Shown here: positions 22,370 to 22,865 of the stretch, piece after piece
How positions within the stretch are numbered: position 1 is the first letter of the stretch
Layout of the letters: the number at the start of each line of letters is the position of its first letter
Assembly (NCBI GenBank): GCA_022827055.1
Contig: JAJDTR010000075.1
Span: 758-64,757 of the forward strand
Direction: 5' to 3'
DNA: 64,000 nt
Source: Candidatus Poribacteria bacterium
Lineage (GTDB): Bacteria > Poribacteria > WGA-4E > JAJDTR01
The notes under the pieces: generated by a model
Database searches by the model: none
The model's input: only the letters and a program-made list of their open reading frames with translations
Told to the model about the DNA's origin: nothing
Position numbers and translations under genes: made by a program

Positions 22370-22865
22370 CAGGGGAATCGCATCTAACTTTGCATTGACT
22401 ACTTTACACGCGTATAGTATGATATGAAACGAACAGATGAGCGGCGGAGTGGTACGCTGCGTCCATCCCCGATTATCTGTTTTCCAACGAGTCGCTGCTT
22501 TGGCTTCTCACGTACCCCAAAGTGACCTTAGCGACGTAGATCTTTTTTTTCTGTTAACATCTTGTTCACATTTGACCGCAGATGAACCCGTGCTATCAAA
22601 GGAAAGTATTGAATCAAACCATGTGAACATGCCCTCGAAATAAAGCCTCCGTTCACATTTCTGTACCTATTTTTGACGTCCTTTTTTACATAAAAATTAG
22701 GTACAAGTTCAGCCGAAAACGCCCAAAACGGGTGACGGATCAACATTTTATCCACATTTCGATCTAATGTCGCTGTAAAGATGAGCAACTTATGAAGTTA
22801 AAAACAGCCGCCATGGTTAGTTTCAACGCCGGAGCGATTGAGCGGTTTTAGGTGCGTTTCCCTTG
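22370..22865. mobile_element. MITE-like non-autonomous element (496 bp) carrying ISAs1-type terminal inverted repeats, flanked by a 10-bp target-site duplication
   Basis: Left IR CAGGGGAATCGCATCT (22370-22385). Right IR is the reverse complement of 22850-22865, CAAGGGAAACGCACCT. These match the IS IR at 15/16 and 14/16 positions. A perfect direct repeat CGGACGGGAT sits at 22360-22369 and 22866-22875. The interior is AT-rich with no credible ORF. Confidence 0.7.

Follow-up and report, generated by a model that had tools for sequence, protein, structure and literature searches.

An ISAs1-type MITE family in Candidatus Poribacteria and its spacing to host promoter-like sequences

The bacterial MITEs known to stem from DDE-type IS elements include IS630-, IS5-, IS4-, IS1- or Tn3-derived elements such as RUP, the Correia-like elements and the TIMEs. 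Integration into safe havens is known from Tn7, which uses TnsD to insert at attTn7, from Ty3, which inserts at Pol III start sites, and from Tf1, which inserts at Pol II promoters. The Poribacteria are symbionts of sponges that have not been brought into culture, and little is known about the dynamics of their genomes. The ISAs1 family, which includes ISAs1 itself, IS1358 and the H-repeat elements, produces duplications (TSDs) of 8–10 bp on insertion (ISfinder).

In the searchable part of the literature, we found no description of an ISAs1-derived MITE, in agreement with the initial annotation of the present locus, which had called such elements rarely reported; the texts seen there to name both ISAs1 and MITEs leave the two unconnected. 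No account of MITEs in Poribacteria came up in the literature searches either, nor did a report of an IS inserting at a fixed distance from −35 boxes or a characterisation of target preference in the ISAs1 family. A preference of an ISAs1-family IS for intergenic sites is mentioned in a metagenomic survey (PMC10592638).

Here, we describe a 496-bp element at positions 22370–22865 of a 64-kb Candidatus Poribacteria window (the whole stretch of 64,000 nucleotides that was analysed). In common with members of the ISAs1 family, the element has an inverted repeat (IR) that starts CAGGG and a 10-bp TSD, and it is accompanied by a 1252-bp partner encoding a transposase with PF13808 and PF01609 domains; unlike ISAs1-family IS elements, it has no transposase of its own. 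The 496-bp segment is a non-autonomous transposable element (MITE) belonging to a multi-copy, non-coding family of ~566 bp found in Candidatus Poribacteria. We count it as a MITE with an ISAs1-family parent because it shows every structural feature of a MITE and because its ends identify the parent. To the joint reading, in which an ISAs1-type MITE mobilised in trans is present in the window as an old, fixed copy and inserts preferentially upstream of −35 boxes, we assign a probability of about 0.85.

Ends, partner, family and age of the element

The window copy occupies the spacer between two divergent genes, one encoding a PhyH-family protein and the other a WD40/FlgD_ig protein. The features in and around the element are as follows.

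21453–22160, minus strand: PhyH-family gene, upstream and divergent, with a candidate promoter at 22284–22256 (minus strand)
22360–22369: left copy of the 10-bp TSD, CGGACGGGAT, with the same flank at the orthologous loci L015 and L027
22370–22385, plus strand: left terminal IR, CAGGGGAATCGCATCT, matching the IS and family IR at 15/16 positions
22395–22423, plus strand: putative internal sigma-70-type promoter-like site, TTGACT-17-TATGAT, found by consensus match 25 nt inside the left tip
22543–22550, plus strand: conserved T8 run after an imperfect hairpin (22491–22535); a terminator scan found no canonical terminator
22563–22660: repeated motif (T)GTTCACAT(TT), direct at 22563 and 22650 and inverted at 22621, with the related TTATCCACATTT at 22748; kept among copies
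22662–22705: conserved hairpin GTACCTA...TAGGTAC with a variable loop and one compensatory pair (A-U to U-A, in five copies)
22748–22762: junction at which ~65 bp of the 566-bp consensus are missing, the loss having occurred between direct repeats TTATyCACATTT(T)CG
22850–22865, minus strand: right terminal IR, AGGTGCGTTTCCCTTG (reverse complement CAAGGGAAACGCACCT), matching the IS/family IR at 14/16 positions
22866–22875: right copy of the 10-bp TSD, CGGACGGGAT, read directly from the sequence
22885–22913, plus strand: host promoter-like site, TTGACA-17-TAAAAT, 11/12 matches, with its −35 from nt 20 of the right IR tip
23256–25754, plus strand: downstream gene encoding WD40 repeats and a C-terminal FlgD_ig domain, co-directional with the host and internal MITE promoters

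Two further features lie elsewhere in the window.

1038–2289, minus strand: ISAs1-family IS of 1252 bp with perfect 16-bp IRs, CAGGGGAAACGCATCT, the candidate autonomous partner
3915–3930, plus strand: solo or remnant IR, CAGGGAAAACGCACCT, whose outward flank reads TTGACT from nt 20 (3890–3895, minus strand)

The initial annotation had reported 16-nt ends matching the ISAs1 IR at 15/16 and 14/16 positions and a perfect flanking 10-bp repeat equal in length to the TSD of the full IS, and the sequence bears out both: compared with the IR of the IS at 1038–2289, there is one mismatch on the left and two on the right, and CGGACGGGAT has the same length as the IS duplication TGTGTGATGG. The direct repeat is exactly 10 bp long and stops at that length on both sides of the element, and is thus not part of a longer local duplication. 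The description of the interior as AT-rich and non-coding also proved accurate, with a GC content of 43.5% (against 52.1% for the whole window), no Pfam match and no codon periodicity. The interior occurs only once within the 64-kb window.

The IS is flanked by its 10-bp TSD, TGTGTGATGG, at 1028–1037 and 2290–2299, and encodes a single DDE transposase of 381 aa (1060–2205, minus strand) that matches the ISAs1 equivalog NF033564 (NCBIfam) at 415.6 bits and contains domains PF13808 and PF01609. TSDs of 10 bp surround not only the window IS but also the IS copies L038, L045, L046, L047, L048 and L049, the same length as is seen at the MITE copies. Alignment of the subterminal regions to the IS ends, a check proposed in the initial annotation, came out positive: the 566-bp family consensus is colinear with the window IS and identical to it over the outermost 22 nt on the left and 19 nt on the right, the right end corresponding to the tnp-proximal end of the IS. 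From these shared ends we infer that the MITE would be mobilised in trans. Beyond the terminal 19–25 nt, nothing in the MITE interior aligns with the IS, and tblastn reveals no similarity to the transposase. An internal-deletion derivative of the IS is ruled out, as the interior cannot be aligned to its parent; on these alignments, the interior is unrelated to the IS and is not an IS deletion remnant. The earlier description of the element as a non-autonomous derivative of the IS can thus be retained for a MITE with ISAs1 ends and has to be given up for the interior.

Six IR-like sites with up to three mismatches are present in the window, against 0.79 expected from shuffled sequences, and none of 100 shuffles reaches six. 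At one of these places (3915–3996), CAGGGAAAACGCACCT is followed after ~55 nt by a perfect 24-nt palindrome, AGGGAACGCAGATCTGCGTTCCCT, that resembles two abutted IR halves; no TSD was found around this solo IR, and the piece is probably a decayed mini-element. A weaker IR-like sequence, CAGGGCAATCGCATGT, with three mismatches and an IS-end-like subterminal stretch, GGTTTTGA, is located just past a gene end (14894–14909, minus strand) and may be another remnant. Further afield, ISAs1 elements on Nostoc plasmids (L050, L051 and L054), whose transposases share ~50% amino acid identity with that of the window IS, possess almost the same 16-bp IR (CAGGGCAAACGCATCT) and 10-bp TSDs, so that the ends are conserved across phyla.

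Members of the MITE family were sought by exact match to an interior 20-mer that is invariant among the first three copies. Scanning of the genome collection returned 33 loci, 32 of which are in seven Candidatus Poribacteria MAGs, and at all 32 of these the homology extends to 400–570 bp; a search for further copies had been proposed in the initial annotation, and those found share their IR with the co-resident ISAs1 element. About 27 of the 32 loci represent independent sites, and the number of copies per MAG, which ranges from 1 to 9, is a lower bound set by the exact 20-mer. One Prevotella match and five JGI metagenome matches were rejected as chance, their homology being limited to the 20-mer itself. 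Additional family copies are found on ENA and JGI contigs, and a protein database search with the translated 86-aa minus-strand ORF of the element identified 11 related sequences of 70–94% identity (on JGI, ENA and NCBI contigs), with the element in quite different gene neighbourhoods on two of the contigs. A scan for IR-gap-IR arrangements with a gap of 449–479 nt found none in species-representative genomes other than that of the window; typical copies are ~566 bp long. In plasmid, phage and viral collections, there was neither a copy of the element nor a close relative of the transposase.

Both IRs are present in 22 copies, in most cases as the perfect CAGGGGAAACGCATCT, and the usual length of these copies is 558–569 bp, with a consensus of 566 bp. 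Perfect 10-bp TSDs are seen at 13 copies and at three more after a 1-nt correction of the ends, with 14 distinct sequences represented; L004, for example, is bounded by IRs and by a perfect 10-bp duplication of its own, CCTCAAAACT. Near-identical copies (95–98%), some of them within one genome, are inserted at separate places and have TSDs that differ, which, on sequence grounds, speaks for recent movement of these copies. Five loci (L004, L006, L007, L029 and L027) contain 90–600 bp of additional sequence at about position 445 of the 566-bp consensus. The extra stretch is made up of modules that recur, for instance GCGCCATTATCCCTGTCGGAATAATTCTTTCAGCAAGTAAC, and represents either a nested repeat or one in expansion.

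Another MITE family, 236 bp in length, is present at three of the Poribacteria MAG loci (L007 6256–6491, L011 3877–4112 and L013 4517–4752). Its ISAs1-type IRs and 10-bp TSDs are as in the 566-bp MITE; its interior is unrelated. At L013, the 236-bp element adjoins the left end of a 566-bp MITE, and at L005 a similar IR-bounded piece of ~223 bp is found beside the MITE. A short dispersed repeat of ~35–45 bp is also present in the window (16828–16864, 16987–17026, 26043–26076 and 49991–50034) and at many Poribacteria loci; the two copies at ~16.8–17.0 kb are mutually inverted and the repeat looks like a REP-type small repeat family.

The window insertion itself is also found at L015 (OZ242354.1) and L027 (CBDDPW010000018.1), with the same flanking 14-mers and with synteny to the window within 5 kb at 85–97% identity. 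Being common to these two loci and the window, the insertion is older than the divergence of at least three species-level lineages; the synteny also assigns the window to a Poribacteria genome. The ortholog at L015 is 561 bp long and undeleted; the window copy lacks ~65 bp between short direct repeats, a deleted form that is seen at L026 and L035 as well. We rate the window copy as old on three grounds, namely that it is shared with two other species-level genomes, that its IRs contain one and two mismatches and that it has lost ~65 bp. It is an old, fixed insertion, decayed and not active, and may have lost its mobility. The anatomy of an insertion, as initially proposed, is therefore confirmed, for a copy that is a decayed, internally deleted member of the ~566-bp family and not a recent one.

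In the comparison of filled and empty sites that had been suggested, the two homologous loci are filled, and an exact scan of JGI metagenomes for the empty-site junction of the window insertion found none. The idea that the interior might be ancestral holds in the sense that the insertion is ancestral to the L015 and L027 lineages; it fails for pre-insertion DNA, with the full anatomy of an insertion retained. The filled site is repeated exactly on a Logan contig from run SRR16351679 that ends inside the element. Among the short-read contigs from the same sample, L002 (Logan SRR16351679_516827) breaks exactly at the IS tip and L001 inside the MITE, consistent with the IS and the MITE being repeated or polymorphic in that community.

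Distance to host promoter-like sequences

Immediately to the right of the window copy is a host promoter-like site with a −35 of TTGACA (22885–22890), starting 9 nt beyond the TSD, and a −10 of TAAAAT (22908–22913). The site precedes the WD40/FlgD_ig gene (23256) and is kept in the orthologs L015 and L027. To score such sites across the family, matches to a sigma-70-type consensus at 9/12 or more positions were recorded in 22 independent right flanks. In 12 of the 22, the −35 starts at nt 19–21 from the right IR tip, with nine at exactly nt 20, and all other 87 offsets combined contribute only two matches at this threshold; relative to the local background, the excess at nt 19–21 has a binomial P of ~1e-21 to 1e-25. 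Column counts reveal TTG at nt 20–22 and TGnTAnAAT at nt 40–48, with no signal in the TSD or in the 9-nt spacer.

In a crude ORF-based analysis, the nearest long ORF on the right is co-directional at 25 of 28 loci and the left neighbour is unbiased (plus strand at 12 loci, minus strand at 18). At the mirror position beyond the left end, a promoter was found in three cases, one of which is provided by an adjacent 236-bp element. Promoter-like sites occur at nt 20 past both tips of L028 (OZ242354.1), with 11/12 matches beyond the right tip and 10/12 beyond the left; this MITE seems to have landed between two divergent promoters placed back to back.

The same position recurs outside the 566-bp family. 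Among eight full-length IS copies (the window IS and relatives with 83–95% transposase identity), three show a hexamer like that of a −35 box at nt 20 past the tnp-proximal end, the equivalent of the MITE right end, and two more have promoter-like sites closer in, TTGACA-17-TATAAT at nt 9 and TTGACA-16-TATAAT at nt 14. A 10/12 promoter is present at nt 20 in all three copies of the 236-bp MITE, TTGACT starts at nt 20 in the outward flank of the solo IR at 3915, and the young copies L017 and L018 (95–98% identity) already display the nt-20 geometry. No promoter was found at the preferred offset in the window IS and two of its relatives, nor in the Nostoc plasmid relatives (0/3, a small sample); the preference is therefore partial, applying to about half of sites, and is possibly clade-specific. 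That one geometry is common to the 566-bp MITE, the 236-bp MITE and several IS elements suggests promoter-guided target choice, and we favour target choice over later selection because the same spacing accompanies unrelated interiors and is already present in young copies.

How might this come about? In the mechanism we propose, the ISAs1 DDE transposase, supplied in trans, would bind the terminal 16–22 bp of the MITE and integrate it by a 10-bp staggered cut, giving rise to the 10-bp duplication. The machinery would prefer a site ~9 bp upstream of sigma-70-type −35 boxes, which we infer from the fact that this placement is typical of the family, of the 236-bp MITE and of several full-length IS relatives, and would mostly orient the element with the tnp-proximal-type end next to the promoter. 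A more specific version, to which we give slightly less than an even chance, is that the ISAs1-clade transposase reads promoters, through either the −35 hexamer directly or promoter-bound RNA polymerase, and positions the tip of the element 19 nt upstream. Integration would then be tethered to promoters as safe havens, and the MITE would constitute a mobile upstream promoter cassette capable of rewiring gene expression in Poribacteria.

The interior and the competing explanations

The predicted internal promoter points into the element, towards the right end. All but one of the 35 copies contain the promoter block, with a spacer of 17 nt in every case; in these 34, the −35 reads TTGACA 22 times and the −10 reads TATGAT 24 times and TATAAT eight times, and several copies, L017 among them, are perfect at 12/12 positions. 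This putative promoter may add transcription into the downstream gene. Derivation from the transposase promoter was considered and set aside, the alignment past ~22 nt being uninformative.

The ORFs inside the element have no Pfam match, and exact look-ups of two of them returned no record. Stop-free frames cross the core in all copies and on both strands, yet no codon periodicity is apparent (0.126, 0.130 and 0.133 substitutions for the three codon phases across 22553–22760) and the subfamilies are set apart by indels whose lengths are not divisible by three. The absence of periodicity and the frame-breaking indels together lead us to judge the interior non-coding, and the 86-aa minus-strand and 68-aa plus-strand ORFs were ruled out as genes, having neither a family match nor periodicity. 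An Rfam search of the element gave nothing better than E = 5.6 and nothing near a gathering score. For the region 3′ of the internal promoter, the RNAalifold consensus is −5.5 kcal/mol with 0 compensatory pairs; the window sequence alone folds at 22430–22560 with z = −2.6. A small RNA with a terminator in this region was rejected, as there is no consensus structure and no canonical terminator. The central region has a minus-strand consensus fold of −21.2 kcal/mol in which 99% of cells are paired; column shuffles reach ~−6 kcal/mol. The copies are compatible with such a minus-strand fold, although double changes are seen at only two pairs and barely exceed the shuffle controls, covariation too weak to establish a structure. 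Conservation of the core is in part an ascertainment effect of the exact 20-mer used to find copies. We also dropped the idea of an oriC or DnaA-box cluster: the window shows no enrichment of motifs like TTATCCACA, and the element occurs as a dispersed repeat.

These properties of the interior bear on the possibility that the element is mainly a vehicle for a passenger, with the left-end promoter driving a structured ncRNA or a small protein whose presence would explain why the interior is conserved. A near-consensus, conserved promoter, the fold at 22430–22560, the conserved central hairpins with their low minus-strand energy and the stop-free frames over the core are all features that such a passenger might leave. 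Against this, Rfam recognises nothing, the 5′ region lacks compensatory pairs, the central fold has its double changes at two pairs only and is stronger on the strand opposite the promoter, the frames are without periodicity or family match and are shifted by indels, and part of the core conservation follows from the 20-mer; we consider a passenger improbable. Far harder to sustain is the notion that the 496 bp do not belong to a mobile family, being either intergenic DNA of ancestral origin or the remnant of a single IS deletion, with ends that resemble IRs by chance. It could draw on the orthologous loci being filled in two genomes and on the lack of an empty site in the JGI metagenomes, but the 32 further copies, which lie among different genes and have 10-bp TSDs of their own, an interior without IS similarity and an IR count in the window above chance leave it scarcely any room.

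Selection is the explanation that addresses the spacing most directly, and we regard it as unlikely, if less so than a passenger. Insertion would be random and copies with their right end ~19 nt from a −35 box would be retained, either for the benefit of the upstream or regulatory sequence that the element supplies or on account of harm done by insertion elsewhere. The age of many copies, which are common to several species, would have given selection time to act; the conserved promoter and the repeated motif are potentially regulatory, and the co-directional right neighbour at 25 of 28 loci fits such a benefit. Selection has difficulty, however, with spacing that is exact to the nucleotide (9 of 22 at nt 20), because insertions further upstream should be equally harmless. 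The same spacing is seen, moreover, with unrelated interiors, in IS copies with perfect IRs and TSDs and in the 236-bp MITE, and the young copies L017 and L018 are already so placed. We therefore retain preferential insertion upstream of −35 boxes, by a MITE probably mobilised in trans, as the best account of the locus.

Comparison with known systems

The element adds the ISAs1 family to the IS families that spawn MITEs, and documents an abundant repeat family in Poribacteria. The 19-nt spacing to the −35, being common to two MITE families and to IS elements, makes promoter-directed target choice by a simple DDE IS a testable proposition. Promoter targeting, if true, would account for the persistence of such elements in compact genomes without damage to genes, and would be relevant both to the evolution of gene expression and to targeted-integration tools.

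Bacterial MITEs, for which the TIMEs serve as a comparison (PMC4133298), resemble the family described here in being non-coding, in having the IRs and TSD length of a co-resident IS and in being multi-copy, dispersed and mostly intergenic, with promoter-like sequences able to affect neighbouring genes; the size, ~500–570 bp, is also in keeping. Unlike the known bacterial MITEs, this one has an ISAs1-family parent, an interior unrelated to that parent and, in the 566-bp family, a fixed-distance, orientation-biased link with host promoters. The last of these recalls Tn7/TnsD, Ty3 and Tf1, with which the family shares a placement that is exact to the nucleotide with respect to a landmark and favours one orientation, and the avoidance of gene disruption. 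It differs from those systems in that the preference extends to only about half of sites, and in that the landmark, under the proposed mechanism, would be the ordinary sigma-70-type promoter, which would provide many targets in every genome.
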